Made by a program: the position numbers and the translations under genes. The notes under the pieces are model-generated. The model did not search any database. It saw nothing but the letters and a program-made list of their open reading frames with translations, and was not told the DNA's origin. From Escherichia coli (GTDB taxonomy: Bacteria; Pseudomonadota; Gammaproteobacteria; Enterobacterales; Enterobacteriaceae), in the NCBI RefSeq assembly GCF_036507355.1, contig NZ_AP027877.1: a DNA stretch of 64,000 nt; one strand, given 5' to 3'. Every line of letters begins with the position of its first letter. Within the stretch, counting starts at the first letter, position 1. Below are positions 20,122-31,314 of the stretch, piece after piece.

Positions 20122-20289
20122 TGGAGGAATTATGAAACACTATCGGGAATCGTCTGAATGGCGGGCACATTTGCGAGCACGCATCCAGTAATAACACAGG
20201 AAACTATTTTATCTACGCGTTAGCGATAGACTGCTTGCATGGCGAAAGGAGGTAAGCCGACGATTTCAGCGGGACGCTGAAACGGGAAA

Positions 20290-20440
20290 GCCCCTCCCGA
20301 GGAAGGGGCCATAAATAAGGAAAGGGTCATGATGAAGATACTCATCATCGTGGCGCTCTTAGTGATTAGCTACCCAGCATACTAAGACTACCAGGGCGGG
20401 GGAAACCCCGCTCTACCCTCACTCCTGAAAGTATGCCTTC
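20290..20440 (-). ncRNA. sib: Sib-family antisense sRNA (antitoxin) overlapping ibs copy 1; boundaries approximate
   Basis: By family knowledge Sib RNAs are about 140 nt and fully antisense to ibs; minus-strand hairpin GGCCCCTTCCTCGGGAGGGGC+TTTCCC at 20291-20320 is a candidate terminator. Confidence 0.45.
20329..20385 (+). CDS. ibs: Ibs-family type I toxin peptide (MMKILIIVALLVISYPAY)
   Basis: 18-aa hydrophobic peptide ORF with MMK start and RBS aagg, inside Sib/Ibs repeat unit. Confidence 0.8.
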   Translation: MMKILIIVALLVISYPAY

Positions 20441-20636
20441 ACGTTCAGAATGTCAATCCGCAGGCTTTGCAGTCTGCGATCCTGCCAGCAAATATTCTTT
20501 GCGAGACGTTACGCAATAATCACAGAGGAAACTATTTTGTTCACGCGTTAGCGATAGACTGAATTCAGGGCGAAAGGAGGTAAGCCGACGATTTCAGCGG
20601 GACGCTGAAACGGGAAAGCCCCTCCCGAGGAAGGGG

Positions 20637-20648
20637 CCTTAAATAAGG
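20637..20648 (+). repeat. attL core: 12-bp direct repeat CCTTAAATAAGG flanking the island
   Basis: Identical 12-mer at 20637-20648 and 30686-30697; left copy ends the sib half-unit, right copy directly precedes the ibs RBS. Confidence 0.7.
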
Positions 20649-20721
20649 TAAGTTGCACATTTAAAATCTCTTTAATTATCAATAAACTACAATGTATAGG
20701 TCATTATTAGTCAAAATAAAA

Positions 20722-21621
20722 TCATTTGTTGATTTCAATTTTGTCCCATTCTCTCCCTCGGCTATCCCTATACCGCGCCGCCATTGAATCTGATTTATGT
20801 CCGAGAAGACGTTGAGCAAACTTATCGCCAATCTGATTCCGGTATAGCCTCGCCGACAGGCTACGCAGTTCATGGAATGTTGGTGGGTCTCCATCAAATG
20901 AGAGTCCAGATGCATTTCTCGCCTTTGTAAAATACTTCGATACTGTTTTCGGGGAAAGCGGTTCGTGATGCGTTGAGGCGATTATAGTTTCACTGCCGCT
21001 GGCCTCCCTGCATTTCTGTAGTGTATCAGCCAATGAGATATTGAGCGCGTCAATCGTTAGCATCAGCGGAATGGCGAGCTTAGCCCCTGTTTTACCCTGT
21101 TCAATGTGAAGATGGTTGTCGTTTATGTCTGACCATTTCATTCTGCACAAATCGCCGACTCTCTGCCCTGTAACGACAGCCGAATCCATCGCCAGTCTTA
21201 GCCAGATTGGGAGAGGTTCGGCTGCATGGTAAATCGCGACATACTCATTAGCTGTCAGCCTTGAGCGCCTTACTTCTGACTTTGCTGTGCGGGTTGCTGT
21301 TACCGGATTCGTTTCCACATGCCCCTCGGCTATTGCCTCACGAAAAACGTCAACAAGGGTTGACCTGATTAATTTTGCGGAAGCCGCTTTACCTTCTGCT
21401 ACGTAGGTGTTTAGCATTGCTGCCACCTCTTTCGTTGATATGTCAGCGAGCGGTTTGTCCGGCAATTTTCTTCGGATTGCCCTGATTTTGCTGGCGTAGT
21501 CGAGTAGAGTTTTCGTCCTGATCCCCCTCTCGCTGAGGATTGTTTCATATCGGTCAAGCCACGCATGAAGAGTGATTACGTCAGCGCCTTTAATCCTGTC
21601 TATCAGTGAGGTAGCCTGAGT
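20722..21621 (-). pseudogene. int: Tyrosine recombinase (phage integrase), N-terminally truncated
   Basis: Catalytic-domain motifs present (…HELRSLSARLY…LLGHKSDSMAARYRD…); reading frame continues upstream of the annotated start to 21621 (…SLIDRIKGADVITLHAWLDRYETILSERGIRTKTLLDYASKIRAIRRKLPDKPL) and is cut by an IS3-family fragment. Confidence 0.75.
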
Positions 21622-22120
21622 TTAACGGACACTCCTTCCTGAAATAGAATGGCATCAGAAGGAGCTAATAATGAGCAGAAAAACCCAACGTTACTCTAAA
21701 GAGTTCAAAGCCGAAGCTGTCAGAACGGTTCTTGAAAATCAACTTTCGATCAGTGAAGGCGCTTCCCGATTATCTCTTCCTGAAGGCACTTTAGGACAAT
21801 GGGTTACCGCCGCCAGAAAAGGGCTCGGTACTCCTGGTTCCCGCACGGTGGCTGAACTGGAATCTGAAATTCTGCAACTGCGTAAGGCGTTAAATGAAGC
21901 TCGCCTTGAGCGAGATATATTAAAAAAAGCAACGTATTTTGCACAGGAGTCGCTGAAAAATACGCGTTAATCGAACAATGGCGACAACAATTTCCCATTG
22001 AAGCGATGTGTCAGGTATTTGGTGTATCCAGGAGCGGTTATTACAACTGGGTACAGCATGAACCCTCAGACAGAAAACAAAGTGATGAGCGGCTAAAACT
22101 GGAGATTAAGGTGGCACATA
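21610..22120 (+). mobile_element. IS3-family element, 5' fragment only (orfA plus first about 38 codons of orfB)
   Basis: orfA 21671-21970 plus orfB N-terminus MCQVFGVSRSGYYNWVQ... in -1 frame, homology lost after about 22118; boundaries approximate. Confidence 0.6.
21671..21970 (+). CDS. IS3-family transposase OrfA (HTH)
   Basis: 99-aa ORF MSRKTQRYSKEFKAEAVRTVLE...ERDILKKATYFAQE, typical IS3 OrfA with leucine zipper and A-run slippery site near 3' end. Confidence 0.8.
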   Translation: MSRKTQRYSKEFKAEAVRTVLENQLSISEGASRLSLPEGTLGQWVTAARKGLGTPGSRTVAELESEILQLRKALNEARLERDILKKATYFAQESLKNTR

Positions 22121-22149
22121 CGGTAACAAGCCGATACATGCCACACGCA

Positions 22150-22756
22150 TTACTCACCCTCTTTGATGCGAATGCCAGCGGCGCGTGGCACATTAACTTC
22201 CACGATGCGCACTGTTGGTTTGTACATCTCAATCGCTGTCAGCCAGTCAGCTCCTGTCATGCGCTTTTCCGCATCGCCATTAGTCCACTGAACCGGTACA
22301 CCAATAGCCTTCATCGCGATTTCTATTTCCCCGGCAATGGCGCTTTTTCCGCAACCAGTAAAACCAGAAACAACGACAAGAACTTCACCTTTGGCTGGTT
22401 TTATTTCCCGTGCTTCCAGTTCTGCAATGCGCTTACTTCCATCCGCGATTACTCCCTCGTAATATTCACGCTGCTCGTTGAGTTTTGATTTTGCTGCTTC
22501 AAGCTCAACTCTCAGCTTCCCTACCGTTAGCGCAATATCCTCGTTCTCCTGGTCACGGGATTTGATGTATTGCTGGTTTCTTTCCCGTTCATCCAGAAGC
22601 GCCAGCACGGTTGCCGGATTAGCCTTGGCAACAAAATCACGGACTGGCTTACAATCAATCTCAGCAATGGGTTGATACGATGTGTATCCATGCTGTCTTG
22701 TATAACTACCGTGACGAATAACGAAAAAATCACCATTTATTTTTTTAGCCTGCCAC
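22150..22756 (-). pseudogene. Phage-derived protein fragment with P-loop-like motif (GFTGCGKS); 5' end interrupted by IS1
   Basis: Reading frame runs into IS1 terminal bases at 22757; annotated start codon lies inside IS1. Confidence 0.5.
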
Positions 22757-22771
22757 GGTAATGACTCCAAC

Positions 22772-23275
22772 TTATTGATAGTGTTTTATGTTCAGATAAT
22801 GCCCGATGACTTTGTCATGCAGCTCCACCGATTTTGAGAACGACAGCGACTTCCGTCCCAGCCGTGCCAGGTGCTGCCTCAGATTCAGGTTATGCCGCTC
22901 AATTCGCTGCGTATATCGCTTGCTGATTACGTGCAGCTTTCCCTTCAGGCGGGATTCATACAGCGGCCAGCCATCCGTCATCCATATCACCACGTCAAAG
23001 GGTGACAGCAGGCTCATAAGACGCCCCAGCGTCGCCATCGTGCGTTCACCGAATACGTGCGCAACAACCGTCTTCCGGAGCCTGTCATACGCGTAAAACA
23101 GCCAGCGCTGGCGCGATTTAGCCCCGACATAGCCCCACTGTTCGTCCATTTCCGCGCAGACGATGACGTCACTGCCCGGCTGTATGCGCGAGGTTACCGA
23201 CTGCGGCCTGAGTTTTTTAAGTGACGTAAAATCGTGTTGAGGCCAACGCCCATAATGCGGGCTGTTGCCCGGCAT
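22772..23275 (-). CDS. insB: IS1 InsB
   Basis: 167-aa InsB ORF overlapping insA (frameshift fusion partner). Confidence 0.95.
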
Positions 23276-23469
23276 CCAACGCCATTCATGGCCATATCAA
23301 TGATTTTCTGGTGCGTACCGGGTTGAGAAGCGGTGTAAGTGAACTGCAGTTGCCATGTTTTACGGCAGTGAGAGCAGAGATAGCGCTGATGTCCGGCGGT
23401 GCTTTTGCCGTTACGCACCACCCCGTCAGTAGCTGAACAGGAGGGACAGCTGATAGAAACAGAAGCCAC
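23194..23469 (-). CDS. insA: IS1 InsA
   Basis: 91-aa [43 protein letters not shown]... Confidence 0.95.
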
Positions 23470-23548
23470 TGGAGCACCTCAAAAACACCATCATACACTA
23501 AATCAGTAAGTTGGCAGCATCACCGCCTGCCACGGTAATGACTCCAAC

Positions 23549-24052
23549 TTATTGATAGTGTTTTATGTTCAGATAATGCCCGATGACTTTGTCATGCAGC
23601 TCCACCGATTTTGAGAACGACAGCGACTTCCGTCCCAGCCGTGCCAGGTGCTGCCTCAGATTCAGGTTATGCCGCTCAATTCGCTGCGTATATCGCTTGC
23701 TGATTACGTGCAGCTTTCCCTTCAGGCGGGATTCATACAGCGGCCAGCCATCCGTCATCCATATCACCACGTCAAAGGGTGACAGCAGGCTCATAAGACG
23801 CCCCAGCGTCGCCATCGTGCGTTCACCGAATACGTGCGCAACAACCGTCTTCCGGAGCCTGTCATACGCGTAAAACAGCCAGCGCTGGCGCGATTTAGCC
23901 CCGACATAGCCCCACTGTTCGTCCATTTCCGCGCAGACGATGACGTCACTGCCCGGCTGTATGCGCGAGGTTACCGACTGCGGCCTGAGTTTTTTAAGTG
24001 ACGTAAAATCGTGTTGAGGCCAACGCCCATAATGCGGGCTGTTGCCCGGCAT
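23549..24052 (-). CDS. insB: IS1 InsB (copy 2)
   Basis: Identical to copy 1 InsB. Confidence 0.95.
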
Positions 24053-24246
24053 CCAACGCCATTCATGGCCATATCAATGATTTTCTGGTGCGTACCGGGT
24101 TGAGAAGCGGTGTAAGTGAACTGCAGTTGCCATGTTTTACGGCAGTGAGAGCAGAGATAGCGCTGATGTCCGGCGGTGCTTTTGCCGTTACGCACCACCC
24201 CGTCAGTAGCTGAACAGGAGGGACAGCTGATAGAAACAGAAGCCAC
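23971..24246 (-). CDS. insA: IS1 InsA (copy 2)
   Basis: Identical to copy 1 InsA. Confidence 0.95.
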
Positions 24247-24296
24247 TGGAGCACCTCAAAAACACCATCATACACTAAATCAGTAAGTTGGCAGCA

Positions 24297-25112
24297 TCAC
24301 CCTTCCTTGATTCTTTTTTCTTCTGCTATTCTGGCTTGCTCTTTTGCTTCAGCCTCGCGCCGGATTCGTTCAGCCTCCTCCTGTGCTTTTCTGCGTTCTG
24401 CTTCAATTGCTGCCTGCTTTTCTCTTTCAGCTCGTTCTGCTGCCTCTTTTGCTTCGCGCTGTGCTCTCTGCTCGGCTTCAATGCGTTCACGCTCTGCACG
24501 TTCCGCTGCGGCCTTAGCTTCTGCTTCTCGCCTTGCTGCTGCTTCAATTTCGGCTTTTGCCTTTGCTTCGGCTTCAGCTCTGGCTTTCTCTTCAGCTTCT
24601 CTTTTTAAGCGTTCTTCATGCTCTCGCTTTTCCTGCTCCGCTTTGAGTCTTGCCTCTTCTCTTTGGCGGTCAAATTCGCGATCCATCAAAATCGCTATTT
24701 CATGGTCAGACTCAATTTGCTTTGCGAGAGCTTCAGCTGCTGCCTTAGCTTCTTCTTCGGCTTTAATCCGCGCCTGTTCTTCCTCATAATCAGTAAGAGG
24801 CTGGCGCGCCTTGGCTTTCAGTTCATCAAGGCGATCGCGCACTGTCTTGCGGTTGGCATCAATTAGCTTTGGAATTTCCTTCAGTTCAGCAACAAGGTCT
24901 TTGCCAAGACCATCGAGATATGTTTTCGTCTGCGCAACTTTATACGCCAGAGAAGCGATCTCCTTTCTGCCCTTTGCCGTTGTGATATCAGGCACAAAGG
25001 ACATAACTTCACGTTCAACCTTTTGAAGGATTTCTTCAATCTGGTCGGCAGACTGAAATACAGTCATTGCATTTGCTTTTTCAATAACAACTAAATCTGT
25101 TACTTCACTCAT
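24297..25112 (-). CDS. Phage-associated coiled-coil protein with long K/E/A/R-rich repeat region; 3' end abuts IS1, stop codon created at junction
   Basis: ATG with strong RBS ggagga at 25112; low-complexity EAKAKAE/RREAEAK repeats; frame terminates using IS1 terminal bases. Confidence 0.55.
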   Translation of the reverse strand: MSEVTDLVVIEKANAMTVFQSADQIEEILQKVEREVMSFVPDITTAKGRKEIASLAYKVAQTKTYLDGLGKDLVAELKEIPKLIDANRKTVRDRLDELKAKARQPLTDYEEEQARIKAEEEAKAAAEALAKQIESDHEIAILMDREFDRQREEARLKAEQEKREHEERLKREAEEKARAEAEAKAKAEIEAAARREAEAKAAAERAERERIEAEQRAQREAKEAAERAEREKQAAIEAERRKAQEEAERIRREAEAKEQARIAEEKRIKEG

Positions 25113-25246
25113 ATATCCTCCATCAAAAAAATTGCCCTCACATCGGAGGGCAAAGAAGATTTCCAATAATCAGAACAAGTCGGCTCCTGTTTAGTTACGA
25201 GCGACATTGCTCCGTGTATTCACTCGTTGGAATGAATACACAGTGC

Positions 25247-25450
25247 TTATTCGCGAGCTTTGAGCATTGCGTCTGCAAACTTATATGCAGCGCTTGCTGC
25301 ATAATTAACAGCTCCATCAGAATCATTATCGATAATCGATGGATTGCTAATCATTGCTTGCATAGCCTTAGCAGCGAAGTAATCACGTAATGTCGCATCA
25401 CTTGCCATTTCTGGGCGTTTGATATCTGCTTCATAAAACTCGCACATCAT
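25247..25450 (-). CDS. Small hypothetical phage protein (67 aa)
   Basis: ORF with ATGATG start overlapping stop of an upstream fragment; no family assigned. Confidence 0.4.
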   Translation of the reverse strand: MMCEFYEADIKRPEMASDATLRDYFAAKAMQAMISNPSIIDNDSDGAVNYAASAAYKFADAMLKARE

Positions 25451-25617
25451 TCACCTCCCAGAGCCTTGCTGATTGCTGCAAGACCTTTATTAACAGCTCC
25501 ATACCATTCTGGATATGTTGTCGTTGTTCTATTTTTGGATTGCTTAAGTAATAACTGAAGTGCTTCGAGAAGGTCAGGTGCTGCCGCTATTAGATTGGCA
25601 TCTTCAATACATTGAAC
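25451..25617 (-). pseudogene. C-terminal fragment of a phage gene truncated by IS3-family element
   Basis: In-frame coding sequence ...DANLIAAAPDLLEALQLLLKQSKNRTTTTYPEWYGAVNKGLAAISKALGGE with stop overlapping next ATG; upstream continuation replaced by IS end at 25618. Confidence 0.4.
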
Positions 25618-25674
25618 TGAATCGCCACGGGTTTAACAGACACCTCAGAGTCATTTAAGATGGCTTAAAGAGAG

Positions 25675-25959
25675 GTGCCCATGAGCGGTAAGCGTTATCC
25701 CGAAGAGTTTAAAATTGAAGCAGTCAAACAGGTTGTTGATCGCGGTTATTCTGTTGCCAGCGTTGCAACACGTCTCGATATCACCACCCACAGCCTTTAC
25801 GCCTGGATAAAGAAGTACGGTCCGGATTCTTCCGCTAATAAAGAACAGTCAGATGCTCAGGCCGAGATCCGCCGTCTCCAGAAAGAGCTGAAGCGGGTTA
25901 CCGACGAACGGGACATATTAAAAAAAGCCGCGGCGTACTTCGCAAAGCTGTCCGACTGA
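25675..25959 (+). CDS. IS3-family transposase OrfA
   Basis: 94-aa MPMSGKRYPEEFKIEAVKQVV... HTH plus leucine zipper. Confidence 0.85.
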   Translation: MPMSGKRYPEEFKIEAVKQVVDRGYSVASVATRLDITTHSLYAWIKKYGPDSSANKEQSDAQAEIRRLQKELKRVTDERDILKKAAAYFAKLSD

Positions 25960-26015
25960 GGTACGCCTTTATCCGTGACAACACCTGTTGCTGGCCTGTT
26001 CGCCTGCTCTGTCGG

Positions 26016-26828
26016 GTGCTGGATGTTCATCCCAGTGGTTTTTACGCCTGGCTTCAGCAGCCGCATTCACAACGCCATCAGGCAGACCTGAGGCTGACAG
26101 GGCAGATTAAACAGTTCTGGCTGGAATCGGGATGCGTCTATGGTTATCGCAAAATCCATCTGGATCTGCGGGACAGCGGGCAACAGTGCGGAGTGAACAG
26201 AGTCTGGCGACTGATGAAACGTGTCGGGATAAAGGCTCAGGTCGGATACCGGAGCCCGCGGGCACGTAAAGGCGAGGCCAGTATCGTGTCGCCCAACAGG
26301 CTCCAGCGACAGTTCAATCCGGATGCTCCGGATAAGCGTTGGGTAACGGACATAACCTACATCAGGACCCACGAAGGCTGGCTGTATCTTGCCGTGGTTG
26401 TTGATCTGTTCTCACGCAAAATTATCGGCTGGTCCATGCAATCCCGGATGACAAAGGACATTGTCCTGAACGCACTGCTGATGGCTGTATGGCGCCGTAA
26501 TCCCCAAAAACAGGTGCTGGTTCATTCGGATCAGGGCAGTCAGTACACAAGCCATGAGTGGCAGTCGTTCCTGAAATCACACGGCCTGGATGGCAGCATG
26601 AGCCGTCGCGGTAACTGCCATGATAATGCGGTTGCAGAAAGCTTTTTCCAGTTGTTGAAACGCGAACGGATAAAGAAAAAGATCTACGGAACGCGGGAAG
26701 AAGCCCGCAGCGATATTTTTGATTACATCGAAATGTTTTATAACAGTAAGCGTCGGCATGGTTCCAGCGATCAGATGTCACCGACAGAATATGAAAACCA
26801 GTATTATCAACGGCTCGGAAGTGTCTAG
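26016..26828 (+). CDS. IS3-family transposase OrfB (DDE integrase domain); produced as OrfAB via -1 frameshift
   Basis: 270-aa ORF in -1 frame relative to orfA with DDE-type motifs (…WVTDITYI…HSDQGSQYTS…NAVAESFF…); frame continues back to slippery site. Confidence 0.85.
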   Translation: MLDVHPSGFYAWLQQPHSQRHQADLRLTGQIKQFWLESGCVYGYRKIHLDLRDSGQQCGVNRVWRLMKRVGIKAQVGYRSPRARKGEASIVSPNRLQRQFNPDAPDKRWVTDITYIRTHEGWLYLAVVVDLFSRKIIGWSMQSRMTKDIVLNALLMAVWRRNPQKQVLVHSDQGSQYTSHEWQSFLKSHGLDGSMSRRGNCHDNAVAESFFQLLKRERIKKKIYGTREEARSDIFDYIEMFYNSKRRHGSSDQMSPTEYENQYYQRLGSV

Positions 26829-26847
26829 ATTATCCGTGGCGATTCAA

Positions 26848-27236
26848 TATTGGCCTGATAATTGAAATTGATGACTCAGTATTCAATAATGCATCTAAAT
26901 TCGTAGGTGGTGTTGTTATTCTTGATAATCTAGTTTGTGAATGTAAGACCTATCTCAAAAGAATCGCTTTAAGTCGTATTAGCGGAAGTACTTTTGGCGC
27001 ATTCAACGGAACAGGTCTTACAATTAACGGAGCAAGAGAGATTTACATGGTAAACTCTGGTGGTCATTATAGTAATGACAATGCTATTCACTTAATCAAT
27101 GTGCGTAATAGTGTTTTTTCTGGCAGTAGTTTTACTAACGCTGTGAACTCATGTCTTCTTTTAGATGATTGTCACGACTTAACATTTACCAGTGTGAATG
27201 CTGGTTTTGTAGAGGTATACGAATAATGGCCAACAT
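26848..27236 (+). pseudogene. 3' fragment of a tailspike/beta-helix-like phage gene, truncated by the IS3-family element
   Basis: In-frame translation ...GGVVILDNLVCECKTYLKRIALSRISGSTFGAFNGTGLTINGAREIYMVNSGGHYSNDNAIHLINVRNSVFSGSSFTNAVNSCLLLDDCHDLTFTSVNAGFVEVYE* starts at IS boundary with no start codon. Confidence 0.5.
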
Positions 27237-27534
27237 AACCCCAAAGTATGGGTTCAACATATCAACAGGGTGCACAGGTATTATTTTAGTAGGTTGCACC
27301 AGTGCAGGTAATAGTATTGCAAACATAACTGGTGGCGGTTATGTAGATGGTAGCACTAGAGTATTAGCATGTAATGGCATGCCTGATTCAGTTATTGTTC
27401 TCCGTGGGTCTACTGCGGAGCGCCCTACAGCACCAGTCAGTGGGCAGATGTATTATGATACAACGCTAGGTCTTCCAATATGGTATAACGGCACAGCTTC
27501 ATCATGGCAGCGAGCTGATGGAACAAATACTTGA
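27229..27534 (+). CDS. Small tail-fibre-like protein (102 aa), function unknown
   Basis: ATG overlapping stop of preceding fragment (TAATGG); Gly/Thr/Ser-rich; ends near gtr module. Confidence 0.4.
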   Translation, partial: ANITPKYGFNISTGCTGIILVGCTSAGNSIANITGGGYVDGSTRVLACNGMPDSVIVLRGSTAERPTAPVSGQMYYDTTLGLPIWYNGTASSWQRADGTNT

Positions 27535-30685: not shown

Positions 30686-30697
30686 CCTTAAATAAGG
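30686..30697 (+). repeat. attR core: 12-bp direct repeat CCTTAAATAAGG
   Basis: Identical to 20637-20648; followed by aaagggtcATGATG of ibs. Confidence 0.7.
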
Positions 30698-30705
30698 AAA
30701 GGGTC

Positions 30706-30762
30706 ATGATGAAGTGGATCATCATCGTGGTGCTCTTAGTCATAAGCTTCCCGGCTTACTAA
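30706..30762 (+). CDS. ibs: Ibs-family type I toxin peptide (MMKWIIIVVLLVISFPAY), right half of the unit split by the island
   Basis: 18-aa hydrophobic ORF; upstream repeat-unit sequence replaced by island DNA. Confidence 0.75.
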   Translation: MMKWIIIVVLLVISFPAY

Positions 30763-30994
30763 GACTACCAGGGCGGGGGAAACCCCGCTCTACCCTCACT
30801 CCTGAAAGTATGCCTTCACGATAAGATTGTCAATCTGCAGGCTTTGCAGTCTGCGATCCTGCCAGCAAATATTCTTTGCGAGTCGTTACGCAATAATCAC
30901 AGAGGGAACTATTTTGTTCACGCGTTAGCGATAGACTGCATTCAGGGCGAAAGGAGGTAAGCCGACGATTTCAGCGGGACGCTGAAACGGGGAA

Positions 30995-31145
30995 CCCTCT
31001 CCCGGAGAAGAGGGCTTTTAATAAGGAAAGGGTTATGATGAAGCACGTCATCATACTGGTGATACTCTTAGTGATTAGCTTCCAGGCTTACTAAGAACAC
31101 CAGGGGGAGGGGGAAACCTCTCCCTAACCCTCACTCCTGAAATTA
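30995..31145 (-). ncRNA. sib: Sib-family antisense sRNA overlapping ibs copy 3; boundaries approximate
   Basis: Same unit architecture as 20290-20440, with hairpin gggaaccctctcccggagaagagggc upstream of the ibs RBS. Confidence 0.4.
31035..31094 (+). CDS. ibs: Ibs-family type I toxin peptide (MMKHVIILVILLVISFQAY)
   Basis: 19-aa hydrophobic ORF within complete repeat unit 3. Confidence 0.8.
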   Translation: MMKHVIILVILLVISFQAY

Positions 31146-31314
31146 TGTCACTCCGCCCTTAGTGTCAATCGACGGCTCTCCGTTCTTGCGAGGCGAATAG
31201 CAAAATTTTCTGCGCCGCCGGGACTAATTCTGAAAGTTTCTTCGTTTGCTCTTATTTCATTATTGCAGTCGGTATGATACCGGACCTTAATAATTCTCTA
31301 AGAAAGGATTTCTT

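Follow-up and report, generated by a model that had tools for sequence, protein, structure and literature searches.

The stretch of Escherichia coli DNA analysed here (64,000 nucleotides of contig NZ_AP027877.1, assembly GCF_036507355.1; hereafter the window) is a segment of the chromosome collinear with that of K-12, with mdtB and mdtA followed by yegL and pphC, and the sib/ibs repeats that lie between mdtA and yegL are interrupted by an inserted block of ~10 kb. The K-12 homology stops at 20652 on the left of this block and resumes at 30686 on its right. The 12-mers CCTTAAATAAGG found at 20637 and 30686 are taken as the putative cores of the left and right attachment sites (attL and attR) of a prophage. 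The 10,037 bp between the cores include four insertion sequence (IS) copies, namely, a fragment of IS600, two IS1 and one ISEhe3-like element, which together make 3,288 bp, the phage DNA being ~6.7 kb, and three internal deletions were located in the remnant. Because both prophage ends are still present, all the losses are internal. What is left of the phage is arranged as on the standard lambdoid map in both order and strand (int and early-left genes, minus; tailspike, plus; gtr genes, minus), which fits three simple deletions. A first-pass annotation of this DNA had proposed that IS-mediated deletions removed most of the prophage and spared its gtr cargo, and had called for an alignment with intact gtr-carrying phages; this alignment mapped the deleted segments at three junctions. 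The features of the locus are listed in Table 1.

Table 1. Features of the prophage remnant between mdtA and yegL (positions in the window; aa, amino acids; ORF, open reading frame)
Feature	Position	Strand	Remarks
attL core CCTTAAATAAGG	20637-20648		left end of remnant, downstream of first Sib/ibs unit
Tyrosine integrase, 5'-truncated	20722-21606	-	codons 64-357 of 357; Pfam Phage_integrase E=1.4e-39
IS600 5' fragment (514 bp)	21607-22120	+	positions 1-517 of 1264; HTH_Tnp_1 domain
Deletion junction 1	22118-22120		ATA common to IS600 (CACATATCC) and phage sequence (GGATACGG)
Ead/Ea22-like early gene	22150-22756	-	3' end and stop intact, 5' end cut by IS1; Pfam Ead_Ea22 E=2.8e-26
IS1 copy 1 (768 bp)	22757-23524	-	9-bp repeat GCCTGCCAC on both sides (22748-22756, 23525-33)
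IS1 copy 2 (768 bp)	23534-24301	-	left flank GCCTGCCAC, right flank CTTCCTTGA, no duplication; deletion junction 2
Coiled-coil early gene, 3'-truncated	24302-25112	-	residues 1-270 of 322; frame stops inside IS1 end
67-aa early-region ORF, intact	25247-25450	-	exact protein on 110 contigs; collinear with E2348/69
Early gene, 5'-truncated	25453-25617	-	last 55 of 98 codons, cut by ISEhe3-like element
ISEhe3-like IS3-family element, complete (1229 bp)	25618-26846	+	deletion junction 3
Tailspike 3' fragment	26847-27226	+	residues 356-480 of 480 and stop; weak Pfam Beta_helix match
102-aa ORF, intact	27226-27534	+	always follows this tailspike; present in L006-L010, L013, L015
gtrC-type serotype-specific glucosyltransferase, 495 aa	27580-29067	-	intact frame; Pfam Glucos_trans_II E=5e-27
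gtrB, bactoprenol glucosyltransferase, 309 aa	29054-29983	-	intact frame
gtrA, flippase-type, 120 aa	29980-30342	-	intact frame
attR core CCTTAAATAAGG	30686-30697		right end of remnant, directly ahead of second ibs/Sib unit

The integrase frame extends without frameshift over 294 codons and the stop, from 21606 to 20722. Its product aligned, at 98% identity and without gaps, to residues 64–357 of an intact integrase of 357 aa encoded by an E. coli prophage that occupies the same site of the chromosome. The first 63 residues, the start codon and the N-terminal arm-binding part are missing, and the catalytic and SAM-like core-binding domains are present. No alternative reading frame gives a full-length integrase, and the N-terminal truncation described in the first-pass annotation was thus upheld. 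The gene does not have the full domain set of lambda Int-type integrases and is therefore a pseudogene. The integrase type as such is carried by ~714 complete E. coli genomes.

The truncated integrase is abutted by the intact left end of an IS600, as had been reported, except that the element begins at 21607 and the start given earlier (21610) lies 3 bp inside it. The fragment is 99% identical to annotated 1264-bp IS600 copies and consists of the left inverted repeat TGAGGTAGCC, orfA (21671–21970, 99 aa) and the first 38 codons of orfB. It does not have both ends of a complete IS600, as the right part is absent from the window. A 3-bp deletion was observed right after the A7 slippery site of this IS600 (21925–21935), where GCAACAGCG has become GCAACG, yielding the 99-aa OrfA; this variant is present on 543 contigs and is therefore a circulating IS600 variant and not a private mutation. 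In addition, the IS600 left end is bordered by nearly alike 12-bp sequences at two unrelated insertion sites, CCTGTCTATCAG in int (window 21595–21609) and, in E. coli O26, CCTGTCGTCAG in a zinc-ribbon gene (L016, 1501–1514), and many of the top database matches run 6–17 bp past the IS600 end. Such near-alike outer flanks may reflect a target preference of IS600.

Junction 1 was mapped in a three-way comparison in which the window was set against the full-length IS600 of L016 and the intact ea regions of L017 and L018. The homology to IS600 ends at 22120 and that to the ea regions starts at 22118/22119; the junction is at position 517 of the 1264-bp IS600, with no IS terminus there, and the retained phage DNA begins 29–31 bp downstream of the natural stop of the Ead/Ea22-like gene. 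Because one endpoint falls inside IS600 at the ATA microhomology, the deletion at junction 1 was not made by the IS ends, and the loss of the 5' end of int is attributed to a probable illegitimate recombination at these 3 bp rather than to IS activity; IS600 did interrupt int, but this loss was probably made neither by a transposase nor by recombination between IS copies. Of the rival explanations, the one that survives best would nevertheless assign all three deletions to IS elements, either by a further IS that was subsequently lost from the IS600|ea22 junction or by a one-ended IS600 event. The saturation of the locus with IS elements would agree with it, as would the cause assumed by the earlier reader, but the distance of the junction from both IS600 termini, the lack of any trace of another element there and the 3-bp microhomology typical of illegitimate recombination make it improbable, as IS transposases act at element ends.

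A tandem pair of IS1 copies (22757–24301), which was not mentioned in the first-pass annotation, marks a third deletion. The two copies are identical (768/768) and are arranged in direct tandem, 9 bp apart, as GCCTGCCAC-IS1-GCCTGCCAC-IS1-CTTCCTTGA. Their assignment to IS1 follows from the length of 768 bp, the insA/insB' organization and the 9-bp duplication around copy 1, and the Zn_ribbon_InsA, HTH_Tnp_IS1 and DDE_Tnp_IS1 domains were detected. Both 9-bp duplications and deletions of adjacent DNA are known products of IS1. Copy 1 resembles a simple insertion into the Ead/Ea22-like gene, which has 94–97% nucleotide matches to annotated ead/Ea22-like genes, and copy 2 has lost its original outer flank. 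The phage homology resumes at 24302–24304, right of IS1 copy 2, within the coiled-coil gene, whose product is 99% identical to a 322-aa protein encoded beside cIII/kil in the E2348/69 prophage. In this relative, ~3 kb of recombination genes lie between the coiled-coil gene and the ea22-like gene. The outer flank of IS1 copy 2, being foreign and within the coiled-coil gene, is the signature of an IS1-associated adjacent deletion. A less likely reading of the IS1-9 bp-IS1 tandem would be an active-junction dimer in place of a passive scar.

The ISEhe3-like element contains orfA (25681–25959), an A7G slippery site at 25920 and orfB extending to 26828, and its products carry HTH_Tnp_1 (E=4e-20) in OrfA and rve (E=2e-33), HTH_21 and rve_2 in OrfB. 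The helix-turn-helix orfA and the DDE (rve) orfB in overlapping -1 frames with A7G place it in the IS3 family, and copies that differ by 1 nucleotide are annotated as IS3 family transposase with programmed frameshift. The termini TGAATCGCCACGG and CCGTGGCGATTCA are perfectly complementary over 13 bp and mismatched at base 14; they are of the TG...CA type, and the extended arms of 38 nucleotides show 74% complementarity. UniRef lists the identical OrfA (92 aa) under the name “ISEhe3 transposase A”, a Pantoea ananatis plasmid has a full-length copy of 1229 bp that matches the element at 93.7% identity, and a 92-aa ISEhe3 orfA has been annotated in Shigella flexneri (PMC4924310), all of which supports the name ISEhe3 indirectly. 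The OrfA proteins of IS600 and of the ISEhe3-like element are only 36% identical, which agrees with the earlier statement that two different IS3-family members are present. The copy in the window differs by 1 nucleotide from the copies in four other E. coli genomes. This difference is at window position 26591 (IS position 974), where T stands in place of G at a third codon position, so that OrfB has Asp and not Glu (HGLDGSMSRRG); the change lies away from the DDE residues as far as could be judged by eye.

The ISEhe3-like element parts a phage gene fragment from a tailspike fragment, as the first-pass annotation had described, and its description as a complete 1229-bp copy with perfect 13-bp repeats and unmatched flanks was also reproduced. 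The two fragments are the last 55 codons of an early gene and residues 356–480 of a tailspike. The flanks are AAC and ATA, and no target duplication of 3, 4 or 5 bp that could have been missed earlier was found. When six other full-length ISEhe3-like copies were taken as a control, two were found to be flanked by 3–4 bp repeats (CCG, TTCT), so the element does make duplications, and their absence here fits a post-insertion deletion and is no bar to IS3 membership. The truncated early gene is 96% identical to residues 43–96 of a 98-aa protein of the E2348/69 prophage, the homologous sequence of which runs on past the left junction of the element. On the other side, the tailspike homology begins exactly at 26847, corresponding to nucleotide 1064 of the 1443-nucleotide gene. 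In intact P22-like phages, these two flanks, i.e. an early-left-operon gene and tailspike codon 355/356, are parted by the immunity, replication, lysis and morphogenesis genes, and we consider this mapping of the flanks onto intact relatives as the decisive evidence for the predicted deletion at junction 3. At the IS ends, the homology to intact relatives resumes within 0–2 bp (24304, 25618 and 26847). The deletions at IS1 and at the ISEhe3-like element are bounded precisely by IS termini and are therefore IS-associated. The earlier claim of IS-mediated deletions thus stands for the ISEhe3-like element, which is at a deletion junction, and not for the loss of the int 5' end.

The tailspike fragment was found to be 100% identical in protein sequence to the intact 479/480-aa tailspikes of P22-like prophages that carry PF09008 Head_binding, and the head-binding domain and most of the beta-helix have been deleted from it. 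It is also 39% identical to the C-terminus of the phage AV104 tailspike. The start of the 102-aa ORF overlaps the tailspike stop (TAATG), and its product is 45% identical to that of the ORF following the tailspike gene of AV104, a siphovirus. The tailspike of E. coli PSS-11 has the equivalent of this ORF fused as its C-terminus, and the 102-aa ORF looks like a C-terminal module that occurs either split or fused. The possibility of a single frameshifted gene for the two ORFs was considered and rejected because the first ends at the natural tailspike stop of AV104 and L007 and the second is conserved separately. The gtrA, gtrB and gtrC reading frames are full length, with 1, 5 and 1 residue differences, respectively, from the copies in an intact prophage, and conservation upstream of gtrA extends to 30631. 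The retention of the gtr cargo with most of the prophage deleted, as claimed earlier, was therefore borne out.

The attachment site falls in sib/ibs type I toxin-antitoxin repeats (20170–20652 and 30686–31168), and the insertion parts the second ibs ORF (30706) from its upstream region (20498–20652). Three Sib RNAs were detected by Rfam (20314–20456, 30691–30833 and 31020–31168), and the source strain has three Sib/ibs units as compared with two in K-12 (sibA and sibB). The 345-bp similarity between 20309–20652 and 30686–31030 raised the possibility that the phage brought its own Sib/ibs copy. This was rejected, as the exact 12-mer CCTTAAATAAGG is common to attL and 30686 and the alternative site at 31019 is CTTTTAATAAGG. 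The simpler reading is that the host would have had three tandem Sib/ibs units and that the phage would have integrated between the second and third of them.

These results together suggested that a P22-like phage carrying gtr genes integrated at the 12-bp core in sib/ibs (mdtA/yegL) and was then inactivated and shrunk in place, and we assign to this history a probability of roughly 0.85. Of the arrangement expected of a P22-like gtr prophage, the remnant has gtrCBA, the tailspike C-terminus, a truncated int and the 12-bp att cores, and the head-binding domain and all the morphogenesis genes are deleted from it. The intact relatives have the order P22 coat, gp4/gp10/gp26, gp7/gp20/gp16, Head_binding tailspike, 102-aa ORF, gtrCBA and host DNA; their tailspike shows 98–99% nucleotide identity to the window, and the head-binding domain and the morphogenesis genes were seen in these relatives alone.

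Starting from a putative ancestral phage of about 40 kb, we infer the following events, which may have occurred in another order, and a mechanism for each deletion. IS600 would have inserted into int at codon 63/64, and a later illegitimate deletion would have joined its position 517 at ATA to the DNA downstream of the ea22-like gene, with loss of the remainder of IS600, of the 5' end of int, of xis and of neighbouring early genes. IS1 would have inserted into the ea22-like gene with a 9-bp duplication, and an IS1-associated adjacent deletion would have removed the recombination/kil/cIII segment (~3 kb in the E2348/69 relative). The largest deletion, bounded by the ISEhe3-like element, would extend from the early-left gene to tailspike codon 355 and would account for the loss of the immunity, replication, lysis, head and tail genes. 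The transposition of IS3-family elements is of the copy-out/paste-in type, and Shapiro-type adjacent deletions are not expected of them. Because of this mode of transposition, the most likely route for this deletion is homologous recombination between two copies inserted in the same orientation into the early gene and the tailspike, respectively, which would leave one copy with one flank from either insertion.

Several observations weigh against such a history. A search of 5,426 complete E. coli genomes did not find the body of this tailspike in any of them, and no intact copy of the exact prophage was found; therefore, the sizes of the deletions are estimates from mosaic relatives. The IS1 tandem could have arisen by re-insertion into the 9-bp target or by unequal exchange between the 9-mers. 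Four of the six control copies of the ISEhe3-like element were also without duplication, so that the unmatched flanks, which the first-pass annotation had rightly described and used as a sign of deletion, are weak evidence when taken alone. The remainder of IS600, the int 5' end and xis region, the 5' part of the tailspike and the phage regions next to them do not occur anywhere in the window, which supports the deletions; the search covered these 64 kb, and a translocation to another part of the genome is therefore conceivable.

The movement of the missing segments by IS-mediated inversion or translocation, instead of their loss, by which the locus would be one end of a rearrangement, is in line with the heavy rearrangement of IS-rich E. 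coli and Shigella genomes and with strain Z1323CEC0007, which has the same integrase and in which the other prophage end lies by pphA/yebW instead of yegL. It was judged very improbable, because both att cores and the host flanks mdtA and yegL are in K-12 order and orientation, all the retained phage pieces are in the standard map order and strand, none of the missing segments is present in the window and a partner elsewhere would be needed for each of the three independent junctions. The prophage of Z1323CEC0007 (L003, L025) is lambda-like siphoviral with a rearranged far end; it starts by mdtA/ibs and its tail-fibre end abuts pphA/yebW, an arrangement that suggests a chromosomal inversion or recombination between prophages.

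Some of the junctions were reproduced outside the source assembly. A 1371-bp contig from the separate read set ERR3330519 (L028) is 100% identical to 24275–25645 and ends with 27 bp of IS1 on one side and 28 bp of the ISEhe3-like element on the other, which reproduces the IS1|coiled-coil and early-gene|ISEhe3 junctions. Two other assemblies (L011 and L012), which begin at a point 77 bp within the ISEhe3-like element and extend across the tailspike, gtr and yegL with 99.7–99.9% identity, reproduce the ISEhe3|tailspike junction. Three junctions were thus independently reproduced, and IS1-9 bp-IS1 and IS600|ea22 are known from the source assembly alone. The weakest rival, by which the IS1 and ISEhe3 repeats were collapsed or mis-joined in assembly and the tandem IS1 is spurious, draws on IS elements being classic mis-join sites, on the complete identity of both IS1 copies and on the whole locus being reproduced in no genome of the complete-genome collection, but is hardly credible against these contigs and the record of exact window proteins on a 4.64-Mb E. 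coli contig (BED21852 and BED21862).

The arrangement in the window was compared with the known systems. P22-like (Lederbergvirus-type) prophages share the tailspike-gtrCBA-attP arrangement with the integrase at the opposite end. They differ in that only the last 125 tailspike codons survive here, followed by the separate 102-aa ORF that is fused in PSS-11. Among the cryptic serotype-converting prophages of S. flexneri and E. coli, the gtrIC locus is found at tRNA-Pro/yejO with a 414-aa CP4-57-type integrase (PMC4924310), and the oac1b remnant is found at torT/ycmA with flanking IS1 and IS911 (PMC3630932). Similar to the remnant described here, both have kept an O-antigen modification cassette by att and lost most of the phage genes, with IS elements, ISEhe3 among them, at the boundaries. 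The differences here are the sib/ibs site between mdtA and yegL, the E. coli chromosome, another gtrC type and tailspike, and a deletion endpoint within an IS. Identity with the S. flexneri gtrIC locus was considered and rejected, as the window has no tRNA and the block sits between mdtA and yegL. ISEhe3 is among the IS elements listed for the S. flexneri reference genomes and has been reported inside the genome of the serotype-converting phage SfIV, beside a tail fibre gene (PMC3851460). IS1 and IS600 contribute to genome degradation in Shigella and enteroinvasive E. coli by gene interruption and deletions (PMC7373316). Likewise, they interrupt genes and sit at deletions in the window, here at a single locus in an E. 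coli chromosome.

Remnants of related prophages were also found in E. coli. Strain ECNB21-M121 (L026, 40380–48216) has the same mdtA/yegL att site and keeps a partial head-binding tailspike, gtrCBA and att with an IS at the deletion boundary, but the element is of the IS481 family, gtrC (458 aa) and the tailspike are different and int is lost. The gtrA-ibs-yegL junction occurs in seven genomes, which, to the extent seen in ECNB21-M121, have another remnant there. The remnants at the sbcB site (L006 and L009, 5225–13117) contain a gp16 fragment, the tailspike, the 102-aa ORF and gtrCBA and, unlike the window, have full int and the whole tailspike. We infer that the gtr genes were retained because they are useful. 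Because related prophages decayed independently to nearly the same remnant at at least two att sites (sib/ibs and sbcB), we tentatively raise the possibility, which is doubtful at present, that the block of tailspike end, 102-aa ORF and gtrCBA is a selectively kept, effectively domesticated module, with O-antigen glucosylation recurrently kept, possibly together with the 102-aa ORF, and the lytic functions shed.

The locus matches the well-described pattern of IS-laden defective serotype-converting prophages of Shigella and E. coli (PMC4924310, PMC3630932). IS-driven decay of prophages with retention of cargo is already known, so the main value of the present analysis is in annotation, and no new biology is implied. 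It also calls for caution in two respects, as a deletion is only weakly indicated by the lack of a target-site duplication, and an IS fragment beside a truncated gene is no proof that the IS caused the deletion. The prophage is dead and can neither excise nor form particles, as int is truncated and xis and all the late genes are gone. The gtrABC genes may still modify the O antigen, which could affect the serotype and phage susceptibility of this E. coli.

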